DNA of 64,000 nucleotides from Bilabrum cf. latius (taxonomy: Eukaryota), in contig OZ237740.1 in the NCBI GenBank assembly GCA_965178125.1, positions 868,001-932,000 of the forward strand. The letters are read 5' to 3'. Both the position numbers and the translations under genes were made by a program. Positions 328 through 59,600 of this stretch are shown one piece after another. Positions within the stretch are counted from its first letter, which is position 1. Every line of letters begins with the position of its first letter. A model generated the notes under the pieces. The model was not told the DNA's origin, did not search any database, and saw nothing but the letters and a program-made list of their open reading frames with translations.

Positions 328-2059
328 TCACATGCCAGCGCCAGAGGCCGCGCCTCCGCCCGCCTTGCTAGTAAGAGGTCGCACTTCGACCGTCTTACCG
401 CTCGTGATCTTGCCCCAGCCGATGAGCCTCCAATGCTTGTCAACTTGCCTGCTCAGGGCGATCTTGTCCCCGGGCTCTGCGCACACTGGCAGCGTTAATG
501 TCAGGGTGGCGATGTCACCCCTGACCTTGCCAACCCTGCCCGTGGTGCTCTTGGACCCGACATTGACCATGAGGCTCTCCTTCCTCTCCAGCTTGCGGAT
601 CTTCTGGTCCGTGCCCTCACCGGCGCGCACTCCCAGCAATCGTCGCAGCAGGTGGTACTGCACCTGAATTTCCTCGTAAACCATGGGCAGGTTGCCCCTG
701 TGCCCCAGGACGTGGCCCACAAGCCTATCTGCCCGGGTGAGGGTGGGGTCAATGCTGGTTCCCACTCCGATGAGGCCGCCCGGCACGGCGTACTGCAGCT
801 TGTTGGTCTCCGCCTTGAGATCCGTGACGGTGCTAAAAATCGGGGAGCACACGTTCTGCTTGGTGGCGGGGTCCCTTCGCACCAGCCCGGGGAGGATCTC
901 GATCTCGTCGCCCAGCTTGAGGACCCCCCTGAGGATGGACCCTCCCGCCACGCCTCCCTCCATGTCTTCGATCTTGTGCCCCGGTCTGTTCACGTCGAAG
1001 GATCGAATGACGATCATCCTGGGGCTGTTGGTGAAGTCTCTCACGGGGAGAGGAACCTTCCTCGCGAGGTACTCGCAGACCAGGTCCACGTTGTACCCTA
1101 GCTGGGCCGAGACGGGCAGGATGGGGGCGTTCTCGGCCACACCTCCGTCCAAAAAGGCCTTGATCTGCTGGTACTGCTCCTTGGCCTGGTCTCGGCTGAC
1201 GATATCGACCTTGTTCTGCAGCACGATGATCTTGTCCAGCTGCATGATCTCCACCGCTGCCAGGTGCTCTTGGGTCTGGGGCTATGGGCAAGGCTCGTTG
1301 GCAGCGATGAGCAGGATGGCGGCGTCCATCACGGCTGCTCCGTTCAGCATGGTTGCCATGAGAATGTCGTGGCCCGGGCAATCGACAAAGGAAATGTGCC
1401 GCACCAGCTGCATGGTTCTGCCCGTGCCGTCTTCCATGGGATACTCATCAGGGGAATTACTTCGACCAGAGGCGTAGACGTACGGCGGTGCGCTCGACCT
1501 GTAAATCTTCGCATTAGCGTAGCCAAGCTTGATAGTAATGTTCTGAGCCAACTCATCCTTGAACTTCACGGTCTTCACACCCGACAGAGCCTTCACAGTG
1601 GTGCTCTTGCCGTGCGCTACGTGACCTACGGTTCCGATGTTGATGGTTGCCTATCTCGAGATGATCTCGGGGGTCAGTGGTGTGAGAGATTCGACCTTGA
1701 GCCCCTCCAATGACTGCTCTTTCATGCCCTGCAGGAGATCAAATGGGAGGCAACAAGGGTGCGAGAAACAAGACTTGAACCGGTGCAGTTCTGCCAGAAC
1801 GAGGGACAGGGACAGTACTGGGAGCCTAGGCCAAAGCATAGCAACCCATGCCATTGCTTACCTCTCCAGTAGGCATCGGGGGCCCCTTTGCAGACCAAGG
1901 GTGAAGTTTCTCCGCGTCAAAGTCGGGTGCACGAACACCTCCTGCCCCACTGGCGGCCCCACTGCCCATCGACGACTTCAAAACGCTCTTTGGGGACTCA
2001 GAGCCTCCAACAGGACTAGATACACCACCTGCTGAGGCAGAGGTTGCAGGGTCAGACAT
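328..2059 (-). CDS. EIF2S3: Eukaryotic translation initiation factor 2 gamma subunit; exons 2059-1862 and 1728-328; two in-frame TAG (1651-1653, 1282-1284) read as Gln
   Basis: Motifs [60 protein letters not shown] and KHWRLIGWG. Phase-0 GT-AG intron at 1861-1729. Ends TGA. Confidence 0.96.
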
Positions 2060-2177
2060 GATTACCAGGAAAAGTACGAAATATGGTTTGGGGTTCCCTT
2101 CTCGCAATCTGATTTGAATTTATTTGTACCGAGCACTTTCGCAGGCAAGACTCCGCGTTCTCGTCGCATGCATTTGG

Positions 2178-3710: not shown

Positions 3711-4748
3711 ATGGACCCCCCGGCAAGCTCAGCAGAAAACAATGATACATCCGTAGGATAGGAAACCGATTCACCTTGGAGCTGCTGCATTTGCCTAGAG
3801 GAGGCAGTGGATCCAGTGGTAACAAAATGTGGCCACTTGTACTGGTGAGAGACGTGCCCATCAGCAACAAGCGCTCAGTATAAGGACAACAGATGCTCAC
3901 TGCCGCACATCATAACCATTTTAGATTGCAGTTGGCCTTGTCTCTACCGGTGGCTGGAACGTGGGCACGAGAGTTGTCCTGTGTGCCGAGCCCACGTGTC
4001 GAGGCAGAACGTCGTTCCAATTAGTGGTCGAGGACGTCTTGACCGGCAGCAGCCAGGGAGCGGTGCCAATTAGAATAAACCTGCTAACGATGCAGCCCCA
4101 ACAGCGGCGCCCCAGCCAGCCGGCCCTGGAGGAGCCCAGGCAAGCAGCGGTCCGTCCACGCAGCAGGCCTGTGGCCGACCAGGATCTCCAACCGCAGCGC
4201 CGGAGGGCGCTTCAGGAGCGGGCTCCAGCCCCTCAATGTCAAGCACTTAGGCCAGTTCCGGGGATCCCCGGCCGCCGGGACGCCAGGACTAGTAGGACTA
4301 GGACCAGGGCTAGTAGTAGGTCCCGCCTCGCCCTCGGGGGAGCTACGAGCCCGCGCCCCCTCCTCGTCCTGGGGGGGGTGGCCCCGCGGGATTTGGGAGC
4401 GGGCCGTTCGGTCTCGGTGGCGGGTTTGGGCCCTTTGGAGGCATGGGCGTGGGAAGGGGCGGGCATGGGGGCGGCTGGCAGTTTGGGGGTGGGTTTGGGT
4501 TATTTCCGAGCTTGTTCGGGATGCAGTTCTAGTTCGGGGGCGGGCCAGGTGGTGGGGTGGGTGGATTCCCCGGGCAATAGCCAGGGTAGGGGCAGGGACA
4601 AGGGCAGGGGCCGGGACAGGGCACCGCGGGCATGGGCATGGGAATGGAGGATGCAAGGGGTGGTGCTGCCCGGCAGCAGCAGCTCTTCCTGTCTAGAGTC
4701 GTCCTCACTCTCGGGCTGCTGCTGCTGCTCTACCTGTTGTATATTTGA
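3711..4748 (+). CDS. RNF5/RNF185/RMA1-like C3HC4 RING E3 ubiquitin ligase with C-terminal membrane anchor (intron 3845-3931)
   Basis: CCICLEEAVDPVVTKCGHLYC|WPCLYRWL..CPVCR..NVVPI, then VPPRPRG, GFGLFPSLFG and C-terminal FLSRVVLTLGLLLLLYLLYI-TGA. The frame is absent from the ORF track because of many in-frame TAG. Confidence 0.88.
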
Positions 4749-5914: not shown

Positions 5915-6782
5915 ATGGCCGCTGCTGGCACTGAGGCGCCCGAGATCAAGCTCTTTGGAAAGTGGTAAGTATAAAATCTAGTGCTTCTCTAGGATTTGCC
6001 TTATGTCGCCATCACCGGCCAGTACAGGAGGGTATGCTGTCCCGTGCAACTGTCTTCTTGCCATTGAATAGCATCTGCTGTTGATCCGAACGTTCAATTC
6101 CTCCTGAGTGCAGGTCTTATGAGGAAGTAAAGGTTAGCGATTCCTCCATCCGCGATTGGGTGGCAGCATCCACCAAGGATGCCAAGTACTTGCCCCACAC
6201 TGCCGGCCGGTACCAGGTCAAGCGCTTTCACAAGGCTCAGGTGAGTTTGCTCGGAACCGATCTTGCCACCGCATTGTTTTGTCCACACATGTTTTTGGGG
6301 CTGGTGCTGCCGCGACCTGCACTCGGATGATTGTCGATGCATGTCTCTGCACTGCAACGCAGGCTCCCATCGTGGAGCGCCTCGTGGCATGCCTGATGTT
6401 CCACGGCAGGAACACCGGAAAGAAGCTTATGGCTGTGCGCATCGTGCAGCACGCCTTCGAGATCATCCACCTGCTGACCGACGAGAACCCCATCCAGGTG
6501 CTGGTGAGCGCCGTGGAGAAGTCGGGCCCCCGTGAGGACTCCACTCGCGTGGGTAAGGGCGGTGCCGTGCGTCGCCAGGCCGTGGACGTGTCTCCTTTCC
6601 GCAGGGTGAACCAGGCCCTGTATTTGATTGCCAACGGTGCCCGGGAGGCGTCGTTCAGGACCATCAAGACCATCGCCGAGTGCCTGGCCGACGAGGTGAT
6701 CAACGCCTCCAAGGGCTCGTCGAACTCGTACGCCATCAAGAAGAAGGATGAGGTCGAGCGCGTGGCCAAGGTGAACCGCTGA
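5915..6782 (+). CDS. RPS5: 40S ribosomal protein S5 (uS7); exons 5915-5964, 6114-6240, 6363-6782
   Basis: [80 protein letters not shown]. Two canonical GT-AG introns. Confidence 0.97.
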
Positions 6783-7025: not shown

Positions 7026-8795
7026 ATGAGCGTCGACACGAAAGCTGCCGAGGATGCCTTCTTGATGACAGTAACAAAGATTCTGTTTTCGTACAGTAAG
7101 GCATGCTATTCACTACAGCCGCTCCTGTACGCGGGATGCCGCAGTGTGAAACCGCTAGCTGTTCGTCCGCTCTTTTCGCAGTCGAGCCGAATCAGTTGCG
7201 TATCCACAAGCCAACCCTGTTAGCTGCAGCCAAACTTGTTCGATGCTTTCTAGGTGAGGTGGATGTGCGTCTTGGCGTCACCTTGCGGCACCTCGATCGA
7301 TTCGTAGTTTTGAACAGTTGCTTCACTCCATTCTCCGGGCAATGTCCTCGGCGCAGACGCGGCAGTTGATGAGGCTGTAGACTTTTCACGGCACGCAAGG
7401 CGCAAAAACATCGCGTTGGACGATATACTGTTGCTAGCAAGGCGAAAACCGGAGCTTCTTCCTCTGCTACGAGCTGCACATGCCGGGAAGGCGGCGGAGA
7501 GACTATCGTAGAAAGCAGAACGCAGCGAGTCAAGGCATCAGGAAGAAGGTGCAGTAAGACATCCTGGTGCGGCTACCGCAGGCGCTGGAAGCGCTGGAAA
7601 GGGTCTGTAGGCGCTGAATAGCGGGGTCGCCAGCCGAACGAGCCAGCCACGTGAGCAGCAGGGCACGGCCATTGACATATCAAGCGGTTCAGAGTCCGAC
7701 GAAAGCAATGTAAATGAATCGCCGCACGCTGCATCCAGCGTGAACCGTCGGGGTTTGCCTCGGGCTCCATCGAGCGGAGCCAGTGCTGCTCTGCGAGCAC
7801 CTGTCCAAGCCGCCAAGGGAAGCCAAATCCACCAAGTAGGCGAGTCTCGCGCGGCAGGACGGGCCATGCAGATTCCCATTTCTAGCAGTAGCATCAGCCC
7901 CGTGCGTCAGGTCCACGGGGATGCGAGCGCTTCTGCCCGGCCCCGCCACGAAGCGCTTGCTCGCCTCGGGGGCGGAGCAGTTGCTCGCGAGGGCTAGGAT
8001 TCTGACATGTCGTGGAGCGGCGGGGATGCTGGAGACCTGGACGTGCTGCTGTCGGAGCCAGTGCCTAGGGGAGACGCCGGAGGATTGGGGGCAGGGGAAC
8101 GGGCGGGGGCTGGCTCGGCACCACTGGTGCCCGGCTCTGCCAGCAGGGGTCGCGTAATGGGTGGCAAAGGGAGGCACAGGCCCCTGGCAAAAGAGGGCAT
8201 TTCAGGCATACTGTCCGATGACTCCGGCTCCGACGGGGATGATGATGAGGATGCGGAGGATGAGGAGGAGGTTGGTGGTGGTGTCAGTGGCAGGGGTAGG
8301 GGTAGGGGCGGTGGAATGCAGAGGGATGGGTGGCAGCAGCAGAAAGGCAGGTCGAGTCTCCATGCTGGACGATCCACGGCAGGGGCAGACGAAGCCGATG
8401 CGGAGGAGGACGAAGACATGCTAGGTCTGTTAGCCATGATGGATGACGATGACGAGGATGCTGAAGGGGTGCAGGAGGGGGTCCTTGGGCGCAGTCTTGA
8501 GGTGCAGGACGAAGGGCAAGTGCCCGCTCGCATGCCGGGTTAGTCCGGACAGGCCCAGGACCCAAGGAATTAGGCTGGTTCCGGTCCAGGAGGGAAACAG
8601 CTGGAATGGGACCAGGAGGGTGACAATGAATTGGACGACATGGAAGCCCTCGCGCAAATGATGCGAGACGACAGCCCTGCGCCTCCCGAGGACAAAATAG
8701 GGCAGCAGCAGCAGCAGCAGCCTGGGGCCGGTGGGGACCCGATTGGGATCGACCTGGAGGCGATAGCGGAGGCGTTTGACAACGACGACTTGTGA
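7026..8795 (+). CDS. CENP-S/MHF1-type histone-fold protein with a long low-complexity acidic C-terminal extension (introns 7096-7181, 7254-7356)
   Basis: DEAVDFSRHARRKNIALDDILLLARRKPEL matches the CENP-S FARHAKR..I..EDV.LLARR motif. The frame continues through several TAG to TGA at 8793-8795. Confidence 0.72.
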
Positions 8796-11292: not shown

Positions 11293-12396
11293 ATGGCCCA
11301 AAGAAGTGCAACATCCCCTGTGATCGATCTCGTGAGCGACTCTAGCTGTAGTGACACGGAAAGCGACTTGGATGAATCCTGGTCTTTGGATGCTGCCACG
11401 ATCACACGTCTATTGCGCAAAGTGCATGCCGATAGCCGAGGCCAGGCAAGAAGTCAGCAGGCTTAGTAGTACGGGCAGGCATCCGACGAGGTGTCAAGCG
11501 CGAATAGAGCTTTGGCATCTGGCAGCAGCAAGGACTTGTTCGCATTGTCTGGGTCAATGTTAGCAGCTGGCGCGCGGGAGTCTGCATGTGCATCTGCATC
11601 GCTTGGGCGGAAAAGGTCCAGAGGCGGAGAAGTTGACGAACCAGCGTGTTCGAGTGGTGGTGCAGTAGCTTCCAAGAGACGGCGCAGAGAGCGAGGTTCA
11701 GACGCGAGCTAGCATGAGTGCGAGGTGTGTGGGAAGGTGCTGAGCTCCATGAGAAACTTGCTGCAGCATGTGACTGTGGTGCACTTGGGGGAGCGCAATC
11801 ACGAGTGCAGAGTGTGCGGGAAGCGGTTTGGGCAGGCAGGTCATCTCAAGACGCACATGAGGACTGTGCATCTTGGGAAGCGCGATCACGAGTGCGGTGT
11901 GTGCGGCAAACGCTTCGGTGTAGCAGGTCATCTCAAGAGGCACATGAAGACTGTGCATCTTGGGGAGCGCGATCACGAGTGCGGTGTGTGCGGCAAGCAC
12001 TTCGGTGTGGCAGGCAGTCTCAAGACGCACATGAGGACTGTGCATCTTGGGAAGCGCGATCACGAGTGCGGTGTGTGCGGCAAGCGCTTCGGGGAGGCAG
12101 GTCATCTCAAGAGGCACATGAGGACTGTGCATCTTGGGAAGCGCGATCACGAGTGTGGTGTGTGCGGCAAGCACTTCGGTGTGGCAGGTCATCTCAAGAC
12201 GCACATGAGAACTGTGCATCTTGGGAAGCGCGATCACGAGTGTGGTGTGTGCGGCAAGCACTTCGGGGAGGCAGGCAGTCTCAAGAGGCACATGAGGACT
12301 GTGCATCTTGGGGAGCGCGATCACGAGTGTGGTGTGTGCGGCAAGCACTTCGGGGAGGCAGGTCATCTCAAGAGGCACATGAGCAGGTTGCACTGA
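11293..12396 (+). CDS. C2H2 zinc-finger protein with 8 tandem fingers
   Basis: ATG 11293 is in frame through TAG codons (SQQA**YGQ, DAS*HEC) to the array of HECGVCGK(R/H)FGxAGxLKxHMRTVH units. Ends TGA. Confidence 0.85.
11713..12393 (+). repeat. 84-bp coding minisatellite (8 units, 7 nearly identical) encoding the zinc fingers
   Basis: Unit gatcacgagtgcggtgtgtgcggcaagcacttcgg...actgtgcatcttgggaagcgc repeats with period 84. Confidence 0.95.
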
Positions 12397-43719: not shown

Positions 43720-45102
43720 ATGGATGAAGGGAGTAGCATCGCCGAGGAGCTGGAGCTACTGCAAGCTGTTTACTCGGCTGCTGGCGAACTCAACGTGACA
43801 TCAAGTGGCGAGAGCACCACGGTACGCATCAATCTTCCAATCGTCGATGCTTCAAAAGCATGGGACGAGTGTGATGCAGCAGAATTCAACACAGGCGAGA
43901 AGGGGTGGGGGCAAACTCAATCGTTCGAGTTGGTGCGCGACATGGTCGCCGATGAGTGGGCTGTAGCTTGCCAGAAGCCCGTATCTATCCATTTCAAGCT
44001 TCCGCCAGGCTACCCCGAGAAAGCGTCCTGTAAAGCATCCGTGGACCATCCAAGCATGGTCGGCTTGCAGCGAGACCACGCGTCCCATCTGGTCGCCGCG
44101 GTGTCGCAGGCCCCTGAATTGGTCGGAAGGGCTTGCATAACTGAAGTGTGCCCACTTGCTCGAACTATTGCCTTGCGCGGTATCGCGCTGTCTTTGCTGC
44201 AAAGTTACCACTAGAGGAGCGGAGCCCAAGGCAGCTTCGTCGATTGGTTGGAGTCCCGCCTGGGTTCAGCCGCTGGCGGCGATGGCCCAGAAGAAGCCAC
44301 TGAGCCTGGTGCACCAGCTCGAGGTCGAGCAGGAAGGCGCAGGAGGAAACGGGAAGAGAAAAAAGCCGCGGCACGCCGAGCAGCTGCTCCGAAGGCAGGG
44401 CTGCGAGTGATATGGTTCCACCACATTCGTAGCCCAACCAAGCGCAAGAACATACAGGAGTGGGCAGCTGAGCTGGGCCTGCGTGGTATCAGCAAGATCG
44501 GGTACCCGGGCGTTGTGGTGGTGGATGGCGAAGACTCCAGGTGTGACGAGTACATCAGCCGGCTCAGGGCACTTCGCTGGAAGGCAATGGCGCTCAGGGC
44601 CCAGGAGACGTATGGGGGCCACACGGCTGACGCCAGTGGGGGAATTGCCTCGGCAGCACCAGCAGGCACGGGCAGCAAGTGTGAATCCAGCAGTGCCAGT
44701 TTGCCTGCTACTACACCTCCTGCATCACCAGCTGCATCTTTAACGGCTGAGTCGGGTACTTCGAGTGCCGGTGCTAGTGCTGGGGCTGGTGCTAGTGCTG
44801 GGGCTGGGGCTGGTGCTAGTGCCGGTGCTGGTGGTGGGCCGCTGGCTGACCCACCCGCTGCCACGCTGGAGTCGCTCCGCGTGTTTGGATCGGAGGTGGG
44901 GTTCAGAGAAGTGTCCGACGCCGAGGGGGGCGGGATGGGGGCAGTGGCAGATCTCCTGAAGTCGGTTGGGAAAGAGGGGCTGTTCCGCACGGCGGTGCTC
45001 AAGATGCCAGCGAAGGACCGCGACTTGGGCGAGGCTGGGGCTGGGGGGGCAGCTGGCGGTGCCTCCAGTGCAAGTGGCGAGCAAACTAGAGAGGGTAAGT
45101 GA
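43720..45102 (+). CDS. RWD-domain plus DUF1115 protein (RWDD2-like)
   Basis: EELELLQAVY and FKLPPGYP (RWD). IWFHHIRSPTKRKNIQEWAAELGLRGISKIGYPGVVVVDG (DUF1115-type). The halves join via TAG at 44212-44214. Confidence 0.8.
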
Positions 45103-45296: not shown

Positions 45297-46181
45297 TCAT
45301 GAGTCTCTCTGCGAGCTAGCAAGCAGAGATGTTGCTGCTGCGGCCACAGCCACGACCAGCACCGCAACCGCTGAGGGTCTGCCCTCCGAGAGCCCCGCCA
45401 CGCCATTCTTGATCGAGGGCGTGCACACAACAATGGGATTATCGTTACCATCGAACTCGTTTGTCTTGAAGGGCTGTCCAGGAAACTGGGCCCGCCAATA
45501 TATAGGAATACCGTTCTCGTCCACATCGTCCCCAGATTCTGGCTCGTCACCACCGTAGTACTGCGGGCTACCGCACCGATACATGTCCTTCGAATATCGG
45601 CAAGACTTGAAAAAATTCTCGCATACGCTTCTGCACATTAGCAGGGAGCGATCTTCGGCGTCGCAACGCGGGAAGTTCAGCCAGCAAAAGTAGTTCCTGT
45701 AAGCCTCCTGACAGTCCTCATTATCGGAGAACCGCTCTGCTACCGATCCTGGAATACCGTGCTCATTGACTCCTTGCCGGGCAAGAGATCGGTTCTGCTC
45801 AACAGAAAGTCTCTGATCTACCATGCGCTCGTAGTTCAATCGAACCCAATCGTCTTTGGCCGAGATCGTATGGTTCGAGTAGAGCTCCTGAAACTTGGGC
45901 ATGCAAGCTCTGTAGCGTACCGTACCTCTACAGAACGGCAAGAAGCTCTCGAAGTCATCAAAGTCAACGCATTCACCAGATTCGTGCCCTTGGATTACAC
46001 AAGCAAGAGAGCCCTGCAGCAAAGCTGCAAGCGCTAACAACGACCTGCAGCGGCCACAGATAGATGAGACACTATTTGAACCCATGTATCGTCCTAAAAA
46101 ATACGGCAATGTTTTGCGCTACAAGGGAATAATTAGAAGAAAGGCAACTGCAAGCGTTGAAGCCAACGCACTCGTCATCAT
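45297..46181 (-). CDS. Secreted or GPI-anchored Frizzled-type cysteine-rich domain protein; 5' structure uncertain
   Basis: LPFCRGTVRYRAC and CQEAYRNYFCWLNFPRCD..LMCRSVCENFFKSC, with hydrophobic N- and C-termini. Ends TGA. Confidence 0.7.
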
Positions 46182-46295: not shown

Positions 46296-49200
46296 TCACG
46301 CAGTGATGTCCCACGTGATGGCATGCTTGCCACTCGACACATCGACACCCTTCGGGAACAGCAGGTCGTGCCCTCCCACGTTGGCGCTCACGTAGTACTG
46401 CACGACGTCCCCAGCGCGGGCCCCGGTGCTGGACACCAGATCAGACCTGAACCAGCCACGACCTTCAGCGGCCCGATCCATGCCAGCGCACTGAAACTGA
46501 CCGCCGCCTCCGCCAGCCGCCAGCTTCGTAAACCCGCCGACCGCCAGCAGCTCCGTTGCCGCCGCCGCCCTCCAGCACAGCGACACCCGAGCGCTTCCCA
46601 AATCAGCGCTCTTGCCCAGCACCAGGGCCTGCAGGATCGGCCGCCCCCACCTCCCGGGGAGACTCACCTTGGTCGATTCCACGGGCTCGGGCACGGACAG
46701 CACCGGCGCCTCTCCCACGTAGTCCATGGACGGCAGGTTCCCGGCAGGCACGTCGATGTACTCGGTGAGCAGAGACTTGGGATGCAGCACCCCGCCTTGG
46801 GCCATGTTCGTCTGCAGGTCGCTGATCACGCCCAAGTCCCCCATACTCGCCAGCGTCTTGTACACGAACCGTGTTACGTTCTCGTAGGCCCTGGAGCACG
46901 CGTCGATCGCGGGTAGCCCGATCTTGTGCGCGAGGCCGAAGCGCTCGCCCTCCGGTGCGGCCTAAATGCGCTGCCAGGCCCCTTCAAAGTCCTTCACTCG
47001 CAGCTTTAGCCGCTGAGCAGCTTCGCCCAGCCGGAAGGAATCGGGCCAGTATTCGAACTTGGCGTTGTAGTAGGCATCCGGCAGTCGGCCCACGAGCGGG
47101 GCAAAATCTCGCTCGATGAATGCATAAGTTGCATCCAGCGCCGCATCGCTCTCGGGAACGTTGGTGCCCACGTCAAACGTGACGTACGGGATGGGTGAAT
47201 CGGTCCACGTGTCGTTCCCGTCGATGCGGAGGAAGGCCTCCACGATCTCATCGAGGACACTGCCACTCGCTGCGAATGACGAAGCAGCGAATGCACGCCA
47301 CATCCCCGGCGCAGTTGCGTTCTGCACGAGTGCGTGAATATCGCTACGAGATGCAGGCGCTGATTCCACGGTGGAGATGCCAGCAGCCTGCAGCACATCG
47401 CACGGATTGCCTGAGAGCTTCACGGGCGCAGAAAGCTGCGAGCTCGAGGCCGGCCCACTCGAGCACGAGGCCGGTGCCGTGAGTCGCTCGAAGGCCATGA
47501 GCTGGGGGCCGACCTGCTGCGTCCTCCAGTGTATCGAGAGCATGCCCGTCACTCCCGCATCAACTGCCTGCTACACGTGCCTGACCATGCGGGACAGCCA
47601 TAGCTGCGGCCCGAGCAAACCCCTGTCGCCTTCCAGCCACGGGATCGCCCACTTGCCTCTCCCGTGGATCGCAGAATAGGCCGGGTCCTCGTCGCCTCCG
47701 CCTTCGTTGGGGAGGAGGGAAGTGATGGTGACGTTCTTTGCCGCAACGCTATCGATGTAGGTGCTGTTCCCGATTGGCCCAAGAGCCCACCCGCCGGACG
47801 CCAGCCGCAGCGTGTCCCAGCCTTCGAGCGATGCAGCCTGTTGCGCGATTTCGAGCTCCTATGCAACCGCCTCCCAGTCGGGTAGCGTATTTTGGATCTA
47901 AGCCCACAGCGTCAGGTACTTCACAACGTCCTCTCCGTACAGCAGTCTGGCCCGGCGAAGCATGCCGCGGTACGATGCGAGCACGTTGGGGCGAGTGCGT
48001 GGCGGGGGCTGCGGGTGATCTTTGTTCACGTACGCGGTGTAATGCCACGCGGACTGCTGTACTTGCGCCGAAACGTTGGTCAAGCGACACGCGAAGTCGT
48101 GGTCAGCCACGGGACCAGTGCGGTCGCCGTGAGCATCTGCAGCGGCTAGCATCACCTGGGGTGGGACGCCGTGGTCAAAGCAGGCGCAGTTCATCCGATC
48201 ACACAGATCCATGCACTCTTGCAGGCTTTCGTTGCCGACGTGGATGCTGCTGTGCGCGTTGCCAGTGCAGTAATTGTCTTTGTAGACGTTGTACTGCGCG
48301 GGGCCCGATATCACGACTCGCCCCGGGTCGGTCGCGTTGGCCGGGAAATTCACGGAGAGTGGCGTGCCCACTGCCAGGCTCATGCCGATACCGACGGACT
48401 TGCACACCTCGGAGACACCCGCGAAGAATCTGCCGCCTTGCTCGTGGGTCTGGTATGCAGCATCGCTGTTGGCGGCCGGCTCGGGGCAAGCATCGTCGGC
48501 CACGATGGTCTCGGCGCCCAGCCTCCCGCACTCGTGGCGGAATGATGCCGCCAAACCGCAGAAAAAATCGCTCGTGTTGGTTGGAGTGGAGCTGCCTCTG
48601 CCTGCCGGGCTGTCGGCTCCATTCAAAGTGGACCAAAACCACGTAGGGTAGGCGGCGTAAGGACTCACCAGGCTGCCGTTTGGCATCAGCAGGCCAGGCG
48701 GTCCAAACCACGTGATCATCTGAGCTGTATAATGCCTGTGGTCATCGCTATTGTAATTGTGCAGCTAGAACACGTTGGATCCGCCAGAAGCAGATTGCTG
48801 TAGGAATCGAGTGTAGCCCTCCTCGGACCAGTAGTCAGGACCCGTTGAGAAGTCATGCCATGGGAAGAATCCACGCTGATCAAATGTCTCGTGCAATCGA
48901 ATGCTGCTGTTCTACCTTGCCAATCGCGCTAGGACAGAGTATCCCGCCTCATCCATGCTTCGATCTTGAGTGGCGGCTATGCTAAGGACACGCTTCAGTA
49001 GCCCAAGACCCGCTTGAAGATTGCGAATGCTTGCAACTTGGACCTGCACTGATAATCCAAAGCCTGTTGAGGCTCCAAAGTGAAGGGAAGCGACGTTGGC
49101 CTCAAATCCGTCCTGTTCGAGATTAGCAGTGCTATCATCACCACAGCGAACATTGATCCGACCGATCTGCAGCCACGGATCAATTTGCTCTAGAATGGAA

Positions 49201-49331
49201 GCTGCGCGGACAGGGAACGCCATGCCATCATGTCCGCAGTTCTTGGACACCTCAATCACAGTAGTTGCAGTTGCCAGCTATAGGCTTGATAGCGCGACCG
49301 TGCAAGCCAGTACCACTTGAAGCAGATGCAT
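46296..49331 (-). CDS. Secreted glycoside-hydrolase-like protein (about 1011 aa, intronless) with a Cys-rich PAN/apple-like insert
   Basis: Signal peptide MHLLQVVLACTVALSSL*LATAT. Motifs RGFFPWHDFSTGPDYW, GGWALGP, KWAIPWLEGD..PQLWL and GMLSIHWRT. Four ORF pieces join via TAG. Ends TGA. Confidence 0.6.
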
Positions 49332-49413
49332 CGGTAGATTGTTGCAAGTATTCATTAAATACGCAGCTCAGATTCAAGAGCTAGACCAGCCCTATACATC
49401 TAGCTACTAGACT

Positions 49414-49433: not shown

Positions 49434-49685
49434 AAGTCGTATCATTACATTCACTCATCATCATCACCTTCGAGATCTCACAATGGACCCTCGTCCAAAG
49501 CTCAAACTCTGTGGCACTCGTCGAGGCTCCCGAGTTCACTCAGGATGACCTAGCAGCACCTACTGCCCGCCGTGGTGGGGTTGTGGTGCAGCTAAGGCTC
49601 CTGGATCCTCGGGCTCGACCAAAATCTGAAATCTGAAATCTGATTTAGGGTCAAGCATAACCGAACAATGGGTGCTGCACAAGAC

Positions 49686-50681
49686 ATGCTTTCGGACCAG
49701 GAGCCATGGTGACAACAGCGGCAATGCAGGAGTACGGTCATCAAGGAAGACGAATCCTGCGCATCCGAGCTGGACAATACCCACAGCAGGGAACGCCCAA
49801 CCTCCAGGTATCGGGCACCGCGGTAGAGCAGATGGAGCGGGCTGAGCATGAGCGTCACGCCGAAACGAAGCCGTGGCAACCTGATGCCGGGGATCAGAAT
49901 AGAGGGAGGTCGCCCGCCTCTCTTCGGAAAGCATGGGCGAAGACAGCTCTCGCCCTGGATCCCTGGGACGAGAAGCTGGAACACACCAACAGGGCCAAGC
50001 CAATCGTCGAAGGCGCGCTCATTCGGATAGAGCGCACGATTGCACGGTCCTCGGAACGTACAGCTGTCAAGGTGCTGGCCAACCAAGTGGTGCAGGTGCT
50101 CCGAAACCAGCTGCGCCAGCAGGAGCAACTGACATGCAGGCAGTGGATGCGTGGTGATGCGGCGGCTGCCTTAGCCGCCACGGCCACGCAGGAGCTGATA
50201 GCGGCAACCAATGCGAACGCCCGACTACAGCGACGGATTTTCAAGCCCCACGGCTTGCTAAAGGATATAGAGAGGCAATGGGCCAAAGGCATGAGCGCGT
50301 GCATGCTCGCCTCTCTGAAGGATCGTGAGACGCAGAGACGGTCATGGAGGAGGAAATGGTGGGTCTCGACCGGGGACCCCGATGTGGGACTGGACCGCGC
50401 CTTGTGCCGGGCACACGCTCCGCACCTGTATGCTTTCTCCTTGTGAAGGCAACAGGCTGGGGGCCTGTGGGGGACCACACTGATGGCGAAGAATGGGAAC
50501 TCGGCGGCATAGGCTGAGAACGGGGGGCCTTTGGCCTGAAAGGGCCGGGGGTCTTGTAGTCCTTTGTTTTTAGGGCTCCTCTGGATCTAGGTGATCACCC
50601 AAACCCCCTCGGGGGCAACGGTGCATCTGGGTGTTTATGGAATCTTTACCCAACAATGTATTTCTGTATATTTCTGTATTT
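49686..50681 (+). mobile_element. 5'-truncated LINE family-1 copy A
   Basis: ORF 49706-50446 is nearly identical in protein to 38520-37773(-), followed by the same 3' UTR and GTATTTCT tail. Flanked by CAAGAC at 49680-49685 and 50682-50687. Confidence 0.93.
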
Positions 50682-50684
50682 CAA

Positions 50685-50960
50685 GACCGCGCATTATGCC
50701 GGGCCCACGCAGTATGCCTGTGTGTCTACGGATACCCGAAATAAAGGCTCCGGGACTGCTGCGAAGGAGGGCTTGAAGGCGACAAAGGGAGGTCCCAACA
50801 TCAGGGCCGGTATATGGGGGGCCTTTGGTCTGAAAGGGTCGGGGGTCTTGTAGTCCTCTTATGAGGGCTCCTACCGCTGCAGGTGATCACCTGAGATATG
50901 GTGCATCTGTGGCGGGTTCGGTAACTTAACCCAACAATGTATTTCTGTATTTCTGTATTT
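50685..50960 (+). mobile_element. 5'-truncated divergent LINE family-1-related copy B
   Basis: Begins gaccgcgcattatgccgggcccacgc (DRALCRAHA) and has the ggcctttggtctgaaaggg block and (GTATTTCT)n tail. Followed by CAAGAC at 50961-50966. Confidence 0.82.
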
Positions 50961-53900
50961 CAAGACAGCATAACCATGACGGTGGACTTTCGTCCGCAAC
51001 CATACAGATGAAAGATTCACCACTTCCATCTGCAGGTCCCATCCACTCCGTCTTCTCACCATCCATACAGACTTGCTCGTGGCGCCATCCGCCTTACCAA
51101 TCTCGTCTGCAGTGCCTCGTTGACGTCATTCTACCTGTTCCAAAGCTTCCTTTCTCCGTCCCTCAACCTAACGGTTCCTCGGATCGCTCTTAGCCCAGTC
51201 CTGCACCATATCTCCTCCATCTACTTTCGCACGCCTCTCATCTTCCGCTCATCCGGTCGTCCTCTAGGTCTCCCCCAATTCGTCCATCTCTCTAGCCCAG
51301 TCACAAGAGTTGGCCATGCTGACAAGGATGTTCCTCGCCATCTCAACATCCGACACCGCGTCGGGTACCTACTCCATGCGTTCTCCATTGCGTCCAGGAA
51401 TCCACTCAGTTCCTTCCTTTGCACTTCCTCCTTGATCCTGTGCACTACCTACCTCATCCTTGGAATTGCTGCTCCCTTGGATGACTCAATCGGCTCCGAC
51501 TCCCAGGGTTTCTCTGTCCATGGGGATCGTCCATCCACCTCCTTCACCAGCAACTTCGTCGTCTGCTCCGTCGTGCCCTGGCCCGATTGCCATCGCTGAA
51601 CCAGCCTCCTCACCTGACGCTGACCTTCTGGTGTAAGCACCGTCGGCCGTGGCAATATCATGCACCGAGCCTTAAGTGCCAATCTCCCAAGGTTCCCCCG
51701 GTTCTGTACCCCCGCGAGCTTTGGGATAGCCCCTGGTCCGAACACTCCCAACTAGGACCCGTCCATCCACTCTCGTACCATAGCATAGGCAACTGCATCG
51801 TGTTTCTGCGCCCTGGGGATCGCCCTATTCCCTCGTAGTGTAGCGTACATGAGGTCCATGTACAGCTTCTTCGTACCCGAGTGACCCGACAGAGCCTTTT
51901 GTGCGATCCTAGTCATTTCAGCCTTCGCCAGTTGCCGTATAGCGTCCTTGCGGACCACTTCCGCCGTTGCTCCTCTAGCAAGAACCTCCTCGTCCCTGAC
52001 CGTCCATCGTCTCAGACACTCCCCCGCTGCATCGAGGGGTCCAGTCCCAGCCCCGCCATCTCGAACTTTGTTGAATACTGCTCTCTTGAAAGTGGCCCAG
52101 GGTGACGTGTTCCTAACCGGTTCTCGTACCACCCATACCGCCCGAAGCAGTTGCAGGTGAACCCTTGATGCGGCGTCCGCCGGTAGTACCTCAATGTCAC
52201 ATACCGACGTGCCTGGTTTCCTAGGTCCGATCACTTTCGGGTAGGCTTCCATCTTCCCAAACACTAGCGCTGACCTGACCTCCTGTAACAATCTATCCAT
52301 TGTTTCGAGTGCCTCAGCGTTCATGGTTATCCCGTCTCTCTCGATGGTCCTCTACCCCAGGACCTCCTCCCACCCGGTCACTGGCACTGCAGCCTCTGAT
52401 CCATACAGCATCCCCATCACCGTCGTCTGATAGAGTAGCTGTGCATGAAGCTTAATTCCCCAGTTGCACTCCACAGCTGCCCTGGTGACAAGTTGACCAT
52501 TCATTCGGGCCATGCTGACCCTACAGTGCACGTGTGGCATCATGTCCACCGCGTGATACTTCTCCTTCGGTGAGCTCCCCTATATCACCCTCACTGATAT
52601 TCGCAACCCGAGGTACTTGTACGCCCGTACGACTGGAACATCTCTGCTCTCTGCAGCTCCTGCCTGTTGCAACTCTACCGCATCCACCGAATGCCCCTTG
52701 CGTTCAAATTCTTCTGCCGCTCGCCCGAACGGCATAAACGCTGTCTTCTCCCCGATTCCGTTCACTCCTGTTTTTTTGATCCCTAGAGTCAACCCAGCCG
52801 CCCGCGCCAACTTCGACATTTTCGCGTACGCCCTCAAGGCTAATCGCCTGTTGCGGACCAGTATCACGTAGTCGTCTGCGTATGCTGCGTGCATAACGTA
52901 AATGGACTTATTCCGGTACCTGAGTCTGACTGGGGCTGCCCCTTCAGCCAGGAGTTCGCGCCTCATGGTCTCCAAAATGGGTGCTATGTACACCAAAAAC
53001 AGGGTGGGTGATAAGATTTCCCCCTGAGGTGCCCCGCCTTCTTTCACCACCGGGTTTGACAGTTCCCCTGTTCCAGGGTCACGTACTCTGACTCGCTGTC
53101 GTACCCTGTTCATCAAGTACCGGATCGATTGAGTTCCCCATCCCTGTTCCATCATCGTTTTCTCCAATATCTCCCACGAGCATGAGTCGTACGCTTGTTT
53201 GAAATCGAAGAAACACATGACTCCCCCAGCTCTGCCCTACTTGCTGATGCCTTGCATCATCGTCATGAAGGCTTGCTGGCAGTTACGTTCCCGTCGGAAT
53301 CCCATCTGGTCTCTCCCAAAGAGACCGTGTCGTTCGCAGTACCGCCTGACCTTGGTGTCCAGCATCGTACTGATCACCTTGCTGATCGTGGAGGTCCAAC
53401 AGACCGGCCTAAATCCCGACACCTCCATTGATCGCCGACCAGCCCCTGCCTTGTCCAGCGGCCGCATCATCGCCTCCTCTAGCTACGCCGGTTGGCATCC
53501 AGTGCACAGTATTGCATTCGATAGAGATCGTAAAACCTCGAGCAGACTGCCTTTGATGTCTGCGTGCGGATCGGCTGCACCCTCTCGCCGGATGAGCAAC
53601 ATGTCTTTCAGTTGATTCGAAGTGACCCCATCCAGACCCGTGGCTTTGTTGCGTCGTAAAGCTTTAATGGCATCTTCGACCTCCAGGTTGTCGTGACAGT
53701 ACAGATTCAGAACCCTGTTCGCTGTCGGCATATTCGGCCTAACTCTGTCGAAGTAGATGTCAGTTGCTGTCCTACGCTTCTTTGCCATCTCCCTAAGCCC
53801 TTCTGCGTGTCGATTGACGATCTCCGCTGTCGTTGATGTCATCGATCCGTTCGCCATCAGGATTGGCAGTAAGCCTTTTTCTCGCGTCGTTGTCACCCCC

Positions 53901-54170
53901 TCCCTGTTCCTCGCCGCCTGCTTGATCCTGTCCGTGATGACTCGCCATCTTGCCGCGGATGTCGTGGATTGAGCGTCAGTCCACAGTCGATCTCCATCGA
54001 GCCTCATGCCCTGCTCTGTCACTGCCATCCTGGTCTGCTACTGCAGCTCCGCTAGCTCGAGCAGTTGTTTGCAATGCGCAACTCGAATTGACGCGTCATC
54101 ATTCGATGGAACCTTCGACGCATCATGCAAAGCGATGAGCTGGGCACTCTGTTCATTGCACGCATTGCGA

Positions 54171-56423
54171 TTATCGTGCATCTTCAGAAACTTCCCTGGA
54201 CTTCCTGGTCTCCGGCGGCTCTTCTAGGTGCGTCGGCAGCCAATGGACGGCAGCAGCCACTCCGACCATCAAGATCGCGGCAAGGTTGAAGACCGCCGAG
54301 GCTCCCAGCGGCCACACGCGCCAGCTCTCATGGTCAGCTGCCTGGTTCAGCGAGAACGCCAGCACAGAGCCGCCCATGGCCGGACCTAAGGCCTTCCCCA
54401 CTGACGCTATCGTCATGGCGAGGCCATTCAGCTGTCCCCGCTGCTTCGACGGCACGGTGTTGTTGATCGTGATTGCCATCGAAATGAACTGCGCCAAACT
54501 GACGCCTGCACTCTGGAAGATCAGGAGCACGGCGGGCGCCCAGAAGACCGCCAGGCTGTAGGCGCTGAGGTCGGGTGCAGACGCCTGGCCATGGACCTGC
54601 GTGCAGTTTCCATGCTCTCCAAGGCTGTTGTCCACCATTGTTTGCGCGCCTACTGCGTCGCTGGGCATCATGATGCTTTCCGATCCATCGATGGTGCAGT
54701 TGGAGCCCTGAGGCTGCTGCTGCAATTCGTCGTGGTTGGCATGGGAGCGCGCAGCATCCCCCAGGAGAGCCACCAGGGGGATCGCAACGAAGCCCGGCAC
54801 CATGAGCCAGCTGGACCACTGCAACATGCTCATCTGACTGACGCACTTGCGGATGCACATGAAGACCGTCAGCTGGAACAAAACCATCAGTCCCCCGTTA
54901 AGCGCCATTACCACGCCCGTCTGCGCAGGTGTCATCCCGAGACCACGGTCTTCCACTGGAGTCTGGGCCCAAGTCGGAAGCGCCTCATCCACGGATATTT
55001 TGATCATGCTCGTTGCCGAGTAGATCAGAATGGCCGCCATGACCACTGGCTGGCAGACGAGGTAGCGATCGTCCTCCGATTCAGGTGACCTGAATGCGTC
55101 GGCACCCGCGCTCATTCTTTGCCCCCGATGCTCGCCCTACCCTATCAATCCACCGTGTTCCTCATCACTGTCGCTTTCGCCTACATCGATGGGAGCTACC
55201 GCAGGAGCGACGGGGGCGACTGCCCCGTCTGCCAGTGGGCTGTCTTGGATCACCTACGGCGCATTGGGGGCTGGTAGACTGCTGCTTTCACCTCCTTCTG
55301 ATGCAGCACTATTGACATCCTTTTTTCTGTCTTGAGAGAGCTCGCTTCTCTCAGCCATTTCAATTCCGAGTTCCAGCTCGTTCGCGACCCCGTCCCATCT
55401 TTGGCCCAGCGGATTCGAGAGGATATCGCGGAGCTCAGCGTCGTGGAGAACTTTCCTAGCTCGATTCACCAGTTCCGGATACCGAGCTGCAATGCGCTCG
55501 CCCTCGCCACTGAGTGTCATGCTACCCAGATCGTCGCTGTCCTCGTCCTCGTCCTCGTCCTCGTCCTGACCACTGCGGTCACCGTGACGGTGCATGTGGG
55601 CGGCGCCGAGCCTTGCGTACCGCGCTTCGTCTCCGCCCGGTCGTGGCCCTGCTGACGGACTCTCAGTTTCCACAGCTACAGCGCCGCTGGACTTCGCCTT
55701 GATATCATTCTCAGGAGCATGGCGCCTTGAGTGAGCACGACCTATGCAAACGCACGGGCCTAGGCAGCCATCCATGGACGCGTGCTCGACTGTCTCTGGT
55801 ACGATCGCAGCAACCGCCACAAACACGATCGCTGCTATCACACTGACCGCGAGGCACGGCAGAAGGATCGGCTCATCTTCGAACACTGTACCCTTGAACG
55901 TGCCCGGCATTGATTCGGCTGGATTGGCCAGCGCGCCTCCGATCGCCGGACCCAGAATCAGCCCGGCCGACCATGCCGCCGTCGAGAACGACATTGCGGC
56001 TGTCTGTTTTTCTGGGGGAACCAGCTCACTGACCATTGCCTTAATTGTACCCACTATGGCGTTTAGCAAGCCGGTTAGCAGCCGAATGGAGAACGCGACC
56101 GTGAAAGACCTAGTCATCGCAAATGCTGGCATGAGAACAGCAACTGCACCCGTTCCGAGAAGCAATGGGAATCGGCGGCCAGTTCTGTCGCTCAACATTC
56201 CGAGCGGAAGGCTGCTCAGAGTTCGACCGACCATAAAGGCAGCAGCAAGCGCACCGGCCCAGTAACCAATATCCCTGTGATCCTCTACCCCTGTTCGCAG
56301 TACAAATACAGGTAATATGGGAAATAGAGACGTGATTGCCACAGCATTGATGAGATTAGCGCCAGCAAGAGCTGCAAGCCAGTAGTACTCAAGCAACGTG
56401 AGCGATTCTTCACTTTTCCCCAT
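54171..56423 (-). CDS. MFS transporter, ZIFL1/DHA1-like, with a long central loop
   Basis: GMLSDRTGRR motif A, DIGYWAG, GLILGPAIGGALA and QRGQLNGLAMTIASVGKALGPAMGG. The halves join via TAG. Ends TAA at the LINE junction. Confidence 0.88.
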
Positions 56424-56687
56424 TTCAAGTGCAGTTGCAGCGACCAGATAAAGAGAATACGTTCAAGCACAAGTACATATCCTGTTGTCCTTGCAAATTT
56501 ACGAGTTTCTGCACAGGGTGACGAGCCGGCGGTGGGCCGGGGAGCCGGCGGCAGGCGGCGAAGCGGCACGGGGTCGCAAGCTGCCGCAGTGGTCAAGAAT
56601 ACGATTGACGTTGGTTGTGCAATGATAGTCTCAACCCTTCACCTAAAATCTTATCAAACACAAAGCATAAAACACGAATCGCTATCC

Positions 56688-59600
56688 TCACGACACTACG
56701 CACTGCCCAGAGCCATCCCCCCCACCATGCCCTTGCCCAGGCCGGATCCTCCCGCCTTGCTCCAGCCTGAGAGCCTCACCCTCATCTCCTCTGGCTCGAG
56801 CCAGCCGCACGCGCAGCTCCTACCGTCTCCGAAGCTGCGCGATCGTCGCGTCGTACACGGAGACTGCGTCCACGCCGGCCTCGCGAGCGGGGTGCTCGCC
56901 GTCACGATAGCTGAAGTGCAGCTCCTCGGCCGCCCCCCCGAAGCGCAGCCTGTACTTCAAATTCGCCGCTAGGCGCACGGCGGGGCGCAGCCGCCTCGTA
57001 CCATCCGGAATCGAAACCCGCATGGTCTCCCAATGGCTGCTGACACCGAGCACGCCGGCGCCGAAGTCGTGCAATGCATAATGCACGGTGCCAGTCAGCG
57101 TGTCTACAACGGTCCTCACAAACAACCGCTTGTGATCCAGTTTCTTGTGAATCGTCTCGTAGTTGTAGCTTCGCGCGTTACCGAAGGACTCGTTTCCGTG
57201 CACCAGCTGGCCTCCCGAGTCGCAGTTGAGCGCCCAAGAGTGCGCGTCGATTCCAAACGAGTTGGCGGACTGGTTGGGGACAGGGAAGAACTCGGCATCA
57301 ACCCAAGCCAGATGCAGCTGGAGGGCTTGTTGGCCGCCAGTTGGCTGCACCTCCACTTCGAATGCAATCACGGGACGCAGCTGCCTCAGCATCTTTGCCG
57401 TCTCAGTTGCGGGCGAGTCGTCCTTGGCCTACGGGAAGAATGCCTTGAATTCCCGCAAAGTGGGGATGCCCACGGGGAACCCGGGAATTCTCGCGGTCAG
57501 GTGCACGAAGGAACCCGGGGATAGCAGCCTGACGGGGTGGCCGTTGGATTCCGAGGCGAGACCGGCCACGGGATCTCTGAACATGCCAGACTTCTCCTTC
57601 TGAAGAATCGCCTTCTTCAGCCTGTCAACGTACTCCTCGGCAGTCTCTGTCGAGACCGCCAATGGTATCGCTGGCCCGCCACTCGGAGCGCCATTGCTCT
57701 CGAGCACTTGCAGCGGCAGCCGTAGGGGCATCTCTTCCGGAGTTTGAGGCTCGCCATCCGTTGCGAATGCAGTGGACGGCCCACGCATGAGGGCAGGTGG
57801 TGCCGCGAGGGGGTCTGACGGAGAACCTCCTCCGCCAGCGCCCGCCCCCGAGGCTGGCCCTGACTCATCATCGTCCACCTGCATTGCCCTCGCAGCTAGC
57901 GCCAGGTCGGCCCCCGCGGGTATCGCCGCAGCAAACGCGTCCTCCCCCTCTGCCAGGTCAGGCGACTCGCCTGCTTCCGCCTGCTTCTGCTGGGCCTCGG
58001 CCAGAGCGCGCTGCAGCACCGGTGATCTCTCGAGAACCCACGAGCCTAGCGACCTGTACCCACCCTTGCCAGGCGGCGGGCGATGCTGGAAGGGTTTCTA
58101 GCCCAGGTTCAGTCGCACCGCGTGACCCAATCCGATGGTGGCAGCAAACACCAGGCCCCCGGTTGCCTTCACGTCACGGTGTGCTACGCCCCACGGCGCC
58201 TCCCACGATCCGTTCAGGGAGTAAGACACTGTTCCTTCAAACATGTCAATGGCAATCCCAATCGTGTTCCCTGGCCTGGCCCAATCGGTTCCAAACTGCT
58301 CGCCAAACGGCTCGGGCTCGCCGTCGCTTCCAAGCTTGCAGGGTCGGTCCACAAAATCTTCATCGGTAAATTCTGGAGACACCGCACTCACCGAGAGATC
58401 TTCTCCGTCAGCGGATCCACTCGCAGCCCCGCCACTCGCACCACCACTCGCACCATGAGAGGACAGTGAGGCAGCACCGGTAGCCTCACCGCCAGACGGC
58501 GCCACACCATGCATCAAAACACCAGGGAACGCTACATTCCTCTCGTCAATGGACACCACTTGCTCTGCGTCAGCCTGGATAGCGGTGCCCATTGCAACGT
58601 TCGGCATTGGCATACCGTGAAAGCTAAAGACGTCGTCAAGCATGGCAGTTGGAGCGGGAGTCGCTTCCTCGCGGGCAGTGTCGGCGTGCTTGCCCTCATT
58701 GGCCTTGGCAAATGCTTCAATCTTGGCCAGCCGCTTACTCATGCCTGTTGATTCGTACCATTGCACCAGATCGGAGCAGAACGGTTCAACTCTAGCCCTG
58801 CATATCGCTGCTAAGCTGTAGAACGCTGCGTTGTCAGGGCGTCTATGCGGCTTCGTTAAAAGCCATTCCGCTGCCAGGGAGGCATTAAAAGTTGGCATGC
58901 TTTGATTACTTAGCCGAGCACCGAGTCCGAGCCTCGATCCGTACATTGGCTGGGATCTGAGGGCGCACAGCATAGTAGCTTGCCGCTGGCCGTAGTTCTA
59001 CGAAAACAAATTTCCCGTCGTCCCCTAAGCGACAGATTCCATGGGAACGAAGCCAACCTGGATGTCCGCTTCCAGCTGTGCCTTCGTGAGCGTGTACGAC
59101 GCCTTGTCCCCAGAGACTGCAACCTTCCACTGCTCCAGGCTGGCCATCTTGCTGTGCGCTGCAGCGGCATGCACCTCACGAAGCTGCGCAGGGGTCAGCC
59201 CGCTCACCTTGTTGAAGTCTAGGACCTCGAGCTCGAAGTACCAGCGGCCTCGTGTGATGCCTACGGTTGGCACGTGCACCACTGCAGAAAAGAGATTGTT
59301 CCTTCTGATCGCTTCTCCCTATAGTATGCTGGATACGTCCCCGCGGAACATGGTGCCGTCCGGCTTGATCTCGACGTCATTGGAGCCAGAAAGTCCCTGC
59401 ACTGGAACCGGGCGCCCCGCGCGCAGACCCGCTCGCTGCACGAGCTGCACCTCGCGCTGCAGGTCAACCAGCCGCTACACGCTGCCTGCGGCCGAGATGG
59501 ACGGACGGTACACGAAGCTGCGCTCCCCCAGATTCACGCCAGCCACGCCCCTGCAGTCCATTGACACCCCAACATTGACGCCCCCAGGCGTAGCCATCAG

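Follow-up and report, generated by a model that had tools for sequence, protein, structure and literature searches.

Genes and reading frames in the window

We analysed a 64,000-nucleotide stretch of contig OZ237740.1 (positions 868,001 to 932,000; hereafter the window) for the meaning of the codon UAG in the nuclear genes of its host. The window is gene-dense eukaryotic DNA with 59% GC, and its long frames are open only when TAG is taken as a sense codon. Its genes, coding frames and open reading frames (ORFs) resembling long interspersed nuclear elements (LINEs) are as follows.

328-1725, minus strand: eIF2-gamma gene (Pfam GTP_EFTU and eIF2_C), two in-frame TAG codons, TGA end at 328-330
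1651-1653, minus strand: TAG at eIF2-gamma residue 25, Gln in 113 of 114 homologues and a gap in one
1282-1284, minus strand: TAG at eIF2-gamma residue 148, Gln in 114 of 114 homologues
3849-4748, plus strand: region of the last exon of a probable RING-finger gene (Cys/His pattern, no Pfam match), TGA end
6360-6782, plus strand: last exon of RPS5 (uS7), Pfam domain reaching the final residue, TGA at 6780-6782
7314-8795, plus strand: coding frame (codon model; spliced-contig comparison), five TAG, TGA end
11293-12396, plus strand: C2H2 zinc-finger gene (Pfam), three TAG, TGA end
14200-25527, plus strand: nucleotide-cyclase gene frame of 3776 codons (Pfam), 24 TAG, no TAA, TGA end
27223-30414, plus strand: low-complexity Gln-rich gene (codon model), 11 TAG, no TAA, TGA end
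30592-32538, plus strand: coding frame (codon model), three TAG, no TAA, TGA end
32943-35849, plus strand: protein-kinase-like gene (Pfam), 11 TAG, no TAA, TGA end
35737-37323, plus strand: coding frame (codon model), three TAG, TGA end
37773-43589, minus strand: LINE-like reverse-transcriptase ORF (RVT_1), 12 TAG, no TAA, TGA end
43750-45102, plus strand: gene with a Prp3_C-like domain (Pfam, codon model), TGA end
45297-46181, minus strand: Fz-domain gene (Pfam), TGA end (45297)
46296-49367, minus strand: frame of 1024 codons (codon model), seven TAG, no TAA, TGA end
49661-50446: LINE fragment with in-frame TAG, TGA (50446)
51056-54181, minus strand: second LINE-like reverse-transcriptase ORF (RVT_1), 9-10 TAG (10 TAG and no TAA when counted over 51056-54268), TGA end
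54171-56423, minus strand: MFS transporter gene (MFS_1), with the only TAA terminus of the window (54171-54173)
56688-63998, minus strand: 3' part of a SPRY-domain gene (Pfam), 2437 codons, 17 TAG, no TAA, TGA end

Among the 16 codon-model frames in the window, 15 ended in TGA and one in TAA. With RPS5, the Fz-domain gene and the LINE fragment added, this reproduced the count of 18 TGA codons at 19 termini made in a first-pass annotation of the same DNA, whose set of termini may differ from ours. That annotation had also seen no TAA inside the long frames it traced; indeed, each carried 7-24 TAG codons and no TAA. The LINE-like elements (37773-43589, 49661-50446 and 51056-54181) have in-frame TAG and end in TGA, and thus share the code of the host.

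UAG is an ordinary sense codon

To sample more of the 48.6-Mb genome, which has approximately 60% GC in host regions, we combined the window with eight 100-kb blocks, giving 864 kb. We called a codon coding-flanked when it had 100 stop-free, coding-scoring codons on each side. By this measure, TAG was coding-flanked 415 times, CAA 671 times, TGA three times and TAA not once. The frame stayed free of TAA and TGA for the next 40 codons after 484 out of 524 TAG and 645 out of 697 CAA codons, compared with 6 out of 20 TAA and 66 out of 158 TGA codons. TAG made up 1141 of 190,847 coding codons (about 6 per 1000) and 13% of Gln codons; Prp8 alone has three in frame. A genome-wide search for protein kinases that read through stops gave 142 matches, 57 of them with TAG; by hand count, these matches contained 85 TAG, two TAA and two TGA codons, and both TAA codons, both TGA codons and one TAG were intronic. 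On these data, UAG is an ordinary sense codon, and an annotation made with the standard code would cut short most genes of this host.

We then compared the genes with contigs from two studies (runs X1 and X3), which we chose as evidence of splicing since they skip GT-AG introns; no run is recorded as RNA. The contigs cover the eIF2-gamma gene, as well as 3931-4442 (X1) and 3931-4457 (X3) of the RING-finger-like gene, which has 11 TAG codons, six of them interspersed among CAG codons in the Gln-rich tract 4284-4319. All TAGs were unchanged, with 0 other letters, which is evidence against RNA editing, and we rejected editing on this ground. The wider proposal, that TAG is edited to CAG in RNA or that the TAG codons arose through misassembly or as lesions in pseudogenes, also has to face the number of TAGs in coding sequence and the presence of a cognate tRNA gene (see below). 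We found no point in its favour and consider its probability negligible.

UAG might also terminate some genes. The coding signal persisted after 400 out of 524 TAG codons (76%), compared with 564 out of 697 CAA codons (81%), and the core motifs of the release factor eRF1 are intact, as would be expected under such a dual meaning. However, the TAG share of Gln codons was flat up to gene ends (0.127 in the last 10 codons and 0.126 beyond 200), and TAG lay near 3 out of 32 frames whose coding signal faded early, against an expectation of 13%. The frequency of TAG thus neither falls towards gene ends nor rises where frames fade, and we see no sign of a dual meaning. All ten ends anchored by homology were TGA (eIF2-gamma, where the end agrees with those of homologues, RPS5, Prp8, GlnRS, BCAT, Cul3, MUT, PAH and a virophage capsid) or TAA (eRF1), and none was TAG. 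We therefore rejected a context-dependent code of the Condylostoma or Blastocrithidia type, because TAG neither terminates detectably nor thins out before ends. We saw no sign of terminal TAG in 864 kb of the 48.6-Mb genome, a sample size with which a small class of such genes is compatible, and we judge a dual meaning very unlikely.

UAG corresponds to glutamine at conserved sites

The two TAG codons of eIF2-gamma stand at positions that are Gln in nearly all homologues, and in a related strain (X6, a 96%-identical contig) an A>G change at 1284 turns the TAG of residue 148 into CAG. Likewise, eRF1 position 44 is TAG here and Gln in 108 out of 110 homologues. We aligned by eye five further proteins (BCAT, cullin-3, methylmalonyl-CoA mutase, CBP and phenylalanine hydroxylase), each with a single PDB homologue. 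The 17 TAG sites compared corresponded to Gln in six cases, Lys in two and nine other residues once each; the five in near-invariant context were all Gln. Among paralogues (11 usable alignments), the partner codon was CAG at three of the four sites where it was not itself TAG. Gln was also the residue most enriched next to TAG (1.26), while Tyr stood at 0.92, compared with 1.6-1.8 around TAC and TAT.

Two points weigh against this assignment. At eleven of the 17 PDB-aligned sites, all variable positions, the one reference structure had a residue other than Gln. In addition, the sequence context of TAG correlated slightly better with that of Lys (0.51) than with that of Gln (0.39), a comparison that did not separate the two. 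Taken at the conserved positions, the alignments indicate that UAG is read as Gln.

UAA is a working stop codon

The first-pass annotation had proposed that UGA is the near-exclusive stop and that UAA might be nearly unused, with its meaning unresolved. Neither proposal was supported by the larger sample. Among 168 termini in the 864 kb (picked by the model and uncurated, a few being intron or shadow-frame ends), 143 were TGA and 25 were TAA. With donor-like ends removed, 90 TGA and 19 TAA remained out of 109 (TAA 17%, 95% confidence interval 11-26%). UAA therefore closes about one gene in six, including the eRF1 gene, whose TAA coincides precisely with the end of its homologues; none of 110 homologues extends further. 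When we read through the TAA of 24 of the 25 TAA-ending frames, with X in its place, a Pfam domain was present in seven and none crossed the TAA.

The excess of TGA follows base composition. TAA accounts for 18.9% of TAA and TGA triplets in all frames (TGA 81%), so a terminal TAA share of 15-17% reveals no visible selection against TAA, and the 83-85% of frames closed by TGA need no special cause. The higher frequency of UGA stops reflects the scarcity of TAA triplets in DNA of this GC content and not a disabled UAA. Downstream of termini, backup stops in frame were barely enriched (23/654 versus 33/1308). The chance of at most one TAA in 19 termini is 0.13-0.20, and we set aside UGA exclusivity as a signal, since composition and a small sample account for it (18 out of 19 is within sampling noise). 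UAA is, on this evidence, an ordinary minor stop.

The single TAA of the window had been assigned to a LINE junction. It does end the MFS gene beside a LINE, and the 51056 LINE-like element begins at most about 90 bases from this stop. The sole other matching LINE copy starts at window position 54080, 91 bases past the TAA, and none of the 20 families listed showed a target-site duplication at the junction. Because the TAA lies 91 bases outside the other copy, it may well be the MFS gene's own stop and not derived from the LINE.

Could UAA also encode Gln, with UGA as the sole stop and TAA too rare to be seen? The preponderance of TGA ends and the scarcity of TA-containing codons (TTA, 263 out of 190,847) would fit. 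At the CAA:CAG ratio of the genome (0.27), however, about 110 coding-flanked TAA codons would be expected beside the 415 TAG, and none was seen. In addition, eRF1 stops at TAA at its conserved end, and neither the Rfam matches nor the pattern searches for intronless genes contained a tRNA(UUA). Together with the capsid genes described next, these results led us to reject the code in which UAA and UAG are both Gln (NCBI table 6), which we regard as scarcely credible. The proposal of the first-pass annotation that UAG is decoupled from UAA was thus confirmed, in the form in which UAG alone is reassigned and UAA kept as a stop; no coding-flanked TAA and no terminal TAG spoke against it.

Endogenous virophages

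By chance, we met two AT-rich integrated virophage-like elements, with integrase, chromodomain, helicase and a capsid that resembles Sputnik V20 and, less strongly, 6g45.

G000:C22:342725-356498: C22 element, with integrase, helicase, protein-primed polymerase, capsid, penton and ATPase
G000:C1:619900-638900: C1 element, 30% GC

The 12 ORFs of the C22 element contain 101 TAG, 104 CAA and 46 CAG codons and end in TGA (8) or TAA (4). The TAG share of Gln codons is therefore 40%, compared with 13% in host genes. As CAA exceeds CAG here, TAA would outnumber TAG if it encoded Gln. A genome-wide search for the capsid yielded 48 matches, of which 43 had TAG, five were TAG-free and none had TAA or TGA. 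By contrast, the 18 ORFs of the C1 element (counted without one overlapping frame of 122 codons) have no TAG among 186 Gln codons and end in TAA (15) or TGA (3). With TAG neither in frame nor as a stop, the C1 element can be read under both the host code and the standard code. A scan of viral contigs with the virophage capsid gave 0 loci.

A candidate tRNA for UAG

We identified one gene for a tRNA with the anticodon CTA, tRNA(CUA), at G000:C23:907607-907679. It scored 69.8 bits, forms a perfect cloverleaf and is present in a single copy. A tRNA(UUA), which the first-pass annotation had suggested looking for, was absent from the 48 Rfam matches and from two pattern searches for intronless genes. 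A more general pattern was dropped as too loose (453 matches versus 486 in the control).

We compared tRNA(CUA) with those type-I tRNAs whose anticodons differ from its own by a single change. It matched tRNA-Tyr at 41 of 60 positions, Gln-CTG at 36, Glu at 35, Lys at 32 and Trp at 31; it matched Gln-TTG at 33, and the two tRNA-Gln genes also share only 33 of 60 between themselves. A total of 41 out of 60 is attained by 5 out of 223 tRNA pairs of different isotype. In the acceptor stem, tRNA(CUA) equals tRNA-Tyr at 12 of 14 positions, a likeness found in 1 out of 223 such pairs. Its D-arm is Gln/Glu-like. Of the Tyr determinants, C1-G72 is retained in tRNA(CUA), but A73 and G34 are missing; U35 and G73 are present. 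In the available text of a review (PMC9976931), A73 and G34 are listed as eukaryotic Tyr determinants and U35 and G73 as bacterial Gln determinants, and the eukaryotic Gln entries of its table are blank. The same source describes Escherichia coli amber suppressors that are mischarged with Gln, the CUA anticodon (U35) and G73 favouring glutaminyl-tRNA synthetase (GlnRS); these are laboratory bacterial mutants, and the parallel with tRNA(CUA) would hold only by analogy.

The tRNA evidence does not all point one way. Of 780 candidates in the tRNA survey, 63 were scored, which makes it partial, and one strict pattern missed a true tRNA-Trp gene that a looser pattern recovered. Moreover, tRNA(CUA) does not resemble a Gln paralogue. 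tRNA-Gln(CUG) was not its closest relative, which disfavours that gene as parent, a weak test given the low identity between the two tRNA-Gln genes. An origin from tRNA-Tyr is a lead that we hold tentatively, with the odds somewhat against it; it draws on the likeness in sequence set out above.

If tRNA(CUA) had retained Tyr identity, UAG would be read as Tyr or as a mixture of Tyr and Gln. The Tyr-like acceptor stem with C1-G72 favours this, as does one PDB-aligned TAG site that is Tyr. Against it stand the absence of A73 and G34, the lack of Tyr enrichment near TAG and the Gln at conserved sites, and we find retained Tyr identity highly improbable. An amber suppressor with G73, supF, has reportedly been mischarged with Gln.

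Other tRNA genes of the host are unusual. The tRNA-Trp(CCA) gene at G000:C40:414995-415065 has G37 and, in place of the lowest pair of its anticodon stem, an A-C mismatch that leaves four pairs. In the UGA-reading four-pair anticodon stem of Blastocrithidia, it is the top pair that is open instead; no in-frame use of TGA was seen here beside this tRNA-Trp. A tRNA with a CAT anticodon occurs in multiple copies (L025, L035, L039 and L046-L048), one of the copies listed having TAT. Its acceptor stem is nearly identical to that of tRNA-Pro(TGG) and its T-loop is GTTCGATT, features that set it apart from the usual eukaryotic initiator; another identity switch is possible. Two distinct nuclear tRNA-Ile genes (L011 and L043) have a GAT anticodon, while the Ala and Thr tRNAs here have A34. 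Eukaryotic tRNA-Ile usually has the anticodon AAT.

eRF1 and a proposed route to the code

The eRF1 gene (G000:C35, L001:1068-2941) has three introns, encodes 438 amino acids and ends in TAA. We compared it with 110 homologues using human numbering. Five changes occur in none of the 110, and all lie beside stop-codon motifs: G29A, N30D and I35V at the GTS loop, S60V at NIKS and K130H at YxCxxxF. We take I35V to be a change also present in lineages in which UAA and UAG (UAR) are reassigned; a literature search gave no match for it. Position 69 is a TAG-encoded Gln (L69Q). Because wheat-type eRF1 and 3 out of 110 homologues share this Gln, it is not diagnostic, and we rejected the change as causal. 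The available published text places N30-M34 in the GTS loop region and I35 in the hydrophobic core above it, where it affects specificity.

The first-pass annotation had called for a comparison of these motifs with those of other UAG-only lineages. Unusual changes are indeed present near all three, and neither T32G nor L69A, known from such lineages, is among them. Several features tell against a role for eRF1: the GTS, E55, NIKS, S70 and YxCxxxF elements are all intact, and the N domain is not more diverged than the rest (identical to Bicosoecida sp. CB-2014 at 90/129, 101/136 and 88/145 positions per domain). As eRF1 is long-branched throughout, the five changes are candidates only for a weakened recognition of UAG, and an eRF1 that rejects UAG alone would be consistent with, rather than required by, its sequence. 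The N domain of eRF1 has two in-frame TAG codons. An eRF1 competent for UAG would truncate its own product, and feedback of this kind is possible.

The nuclear code that best explains these results has UAG as Gln and UAA and UGA as stops, and we put its probability, with the following tRNA, GlnRS and eRF1 steps, at about 0.88. UAG would be read by the product of the one tRNA(CUA) gene. A CUA anticodon is unable to pair with UAA and, without a tRNA(UUA), the two codons would remain uncoupled. U35, G73 and the Gln-like D-arm would let GlnRS, whose gene is probably on G000:C33, charge tRNA(CUA), and the replacement of A73 by G73 would exclude tyrosyl-tRNA synthetase despite the Tyr-like C1-G72 acceptor stem. 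Recognition of UAG by eRF1 would be lost or weakened through G29A, N30D, I35V, S60V and K130H.

Alternatively, eRF1 could be weak for both UAR codons, with UAA a leaky minor stop that no tRNA competes for and UGA actively favoured. The virophages offer some support, since the TAG-using AT-rich element ends 8 out of 12 ORFs in TGA and the TAG-free one 3 out of 18, as does I35 (Val here) through its reported effect on specificity. However, terminal TAA is about as frequent as the background predicts, and backup stops are barely enriched. We consider this alternative unlikely.

Host lineage

In a quick tree of eRF1, computed without bootstrap, the host grouped with Bicosoecida sp. CB-2014 (SH 99). 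A mitochondrial contig of 38.4 kb (G000:C111, L051-L053) uses code 4 and carries a tRNA(UCA), both common to the two bicosoecid mitogenomes (Cafileria and Cafeteria). Among the 120 best matches of its nad7, the only one named to organism was Cafileria marina (71%), and five other sequences were 88-100% identical. The host is thus probably a bicosoecid stramenopile flagellate, as judged from these comparisons, although its eRF1 forms a long branch (0.74) in the quick tree, which counts against the placement. C. roenbergensis in its published description (70% GC, 34-36 Mb) does not fit a 48.6-Mb genome with approximately 60% GC in host regions. A metagenome scan with the eRF1 exon yielded 79 loci, none of them from a close relative; leaving aside a 30-residue match at 73%, the best identity was 71%.

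Comparison with known codes

The comparisons in this section draw on the available parts of the cited papers. UAG-only codes are rare. One with UAG as Gln and UAA and UGA as stops is known from Iotanema spirale (Panek et al. 2017, PMC5304391). The codon table is the same, without dual meaning, and decoding by a CUA anticodon was predicted there. In Iotanema, UAA is the predominant stop, eRF1 carries T32G and no tRNA was identified in the text available (PMC5304391), whereas in our host, of an unrelated lineage, UGA predominates, T32 is intact and the tRNA(CUA) gene is in hand. Three ciliates, Hartmannula sinica, Trochilia petrani and Protocruzia tuzeti, likewise read UAG as Gln, and phyllopharyngean metagenome-assembled genomes from TARA read it as Leu; UAG alone is reassigned in these, as here (McGowan et al. 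2024, PMC11687900). UAA closes 86.9-98.3% of genes in the ciliates, compared with 15-17% here, and high UAA use was offered as a reason against UAA reassignment (PMC11687900). That UAA is kept in our host while closing about one gene in six points to decoding, through the apparent lack of a UUA tRNA, and not to usage load.

The TARA Leu cases have single-copy or few CUA suppressors that resemble tRNA-Leu (PMC11687900), whereas the nearest relative of tRNA(CUA) is the non-cognate tRNA-Tyr. For the UAG=Gln cases, the available text of PMC5304391 and PMC11687900 gives the suppressor tRNA as not detected. UAG is decoupled with another amino acid in the rhizarian exLh (Leu, with eRF1 L69A; PMC5304391) and in Scotinosphaera (Ser, as cited in PMC11687900). 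In Streblomastix strix, integrated virophages or Polinton-like viruses use the variant code of their host, as here (Bellas et al. 2023, PMC10120064); that host reads UAR as Gln, whereas TAG-using (43/48) and TAG-free (5/48) families coexist in our single genome.

Searches of the open-access literature, without subscription papers and supplements, turned up no nuclear reassignment of UAG in bicosoecids or other stramenopiles. New here are a probable stramenopile host, UGA as the main stop, a candidate tRNA gene in hand and endogenous virophages that carry TAG in frame. Nuclear code changes would extend to the stramenopiles if the host is a bicosoecid. A fuller account would join four parts: the first nuclear code change in stramenopiles; a Gln tRNA recast from tRNA-Tyr through anticodon GUA to CUA, A73 to G73 and a Gln-like D-arm instead of a mutated tRNA-Gln; an eRF1 that drops UAG without T32G or L69A; and a change of sufficient age for most of the resident virophage families to have recoded to it, with one family code-neutral. 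That all of these hold together is doubtful.

Codon evidence, the tRNA gene, eRF1 and GlnRS occur together in one genome. With tRNA, eRF1 and GlnRS in hand, the discrimination among UAG, UAA and UGA and the acceptance of CUA by GlnRS are directly testable. The virophages offer a natural comparison of code matching between virus and host.

Further observations

The nucleotide cyclase at 14200-25527 is 3757 amino acids long and has three stretches of catalytic domain, between which lie very long linkers of low complexity. At 50393-50969, a tandem duplication of about 290 bases lies between two LINE-like elements whose 3' ends face each other. The mitochondrial contig contains very long Lys-rich ORFs resembling ribosomal proteins (808 and 1063 amino acids). 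A conserved 30-base AT-rich motif occurs on at least eight contigs (C2, C6, C11, C14, C19, C25, C37 and C41); its varying 5' flanks suggest that it is probably the end of an element.

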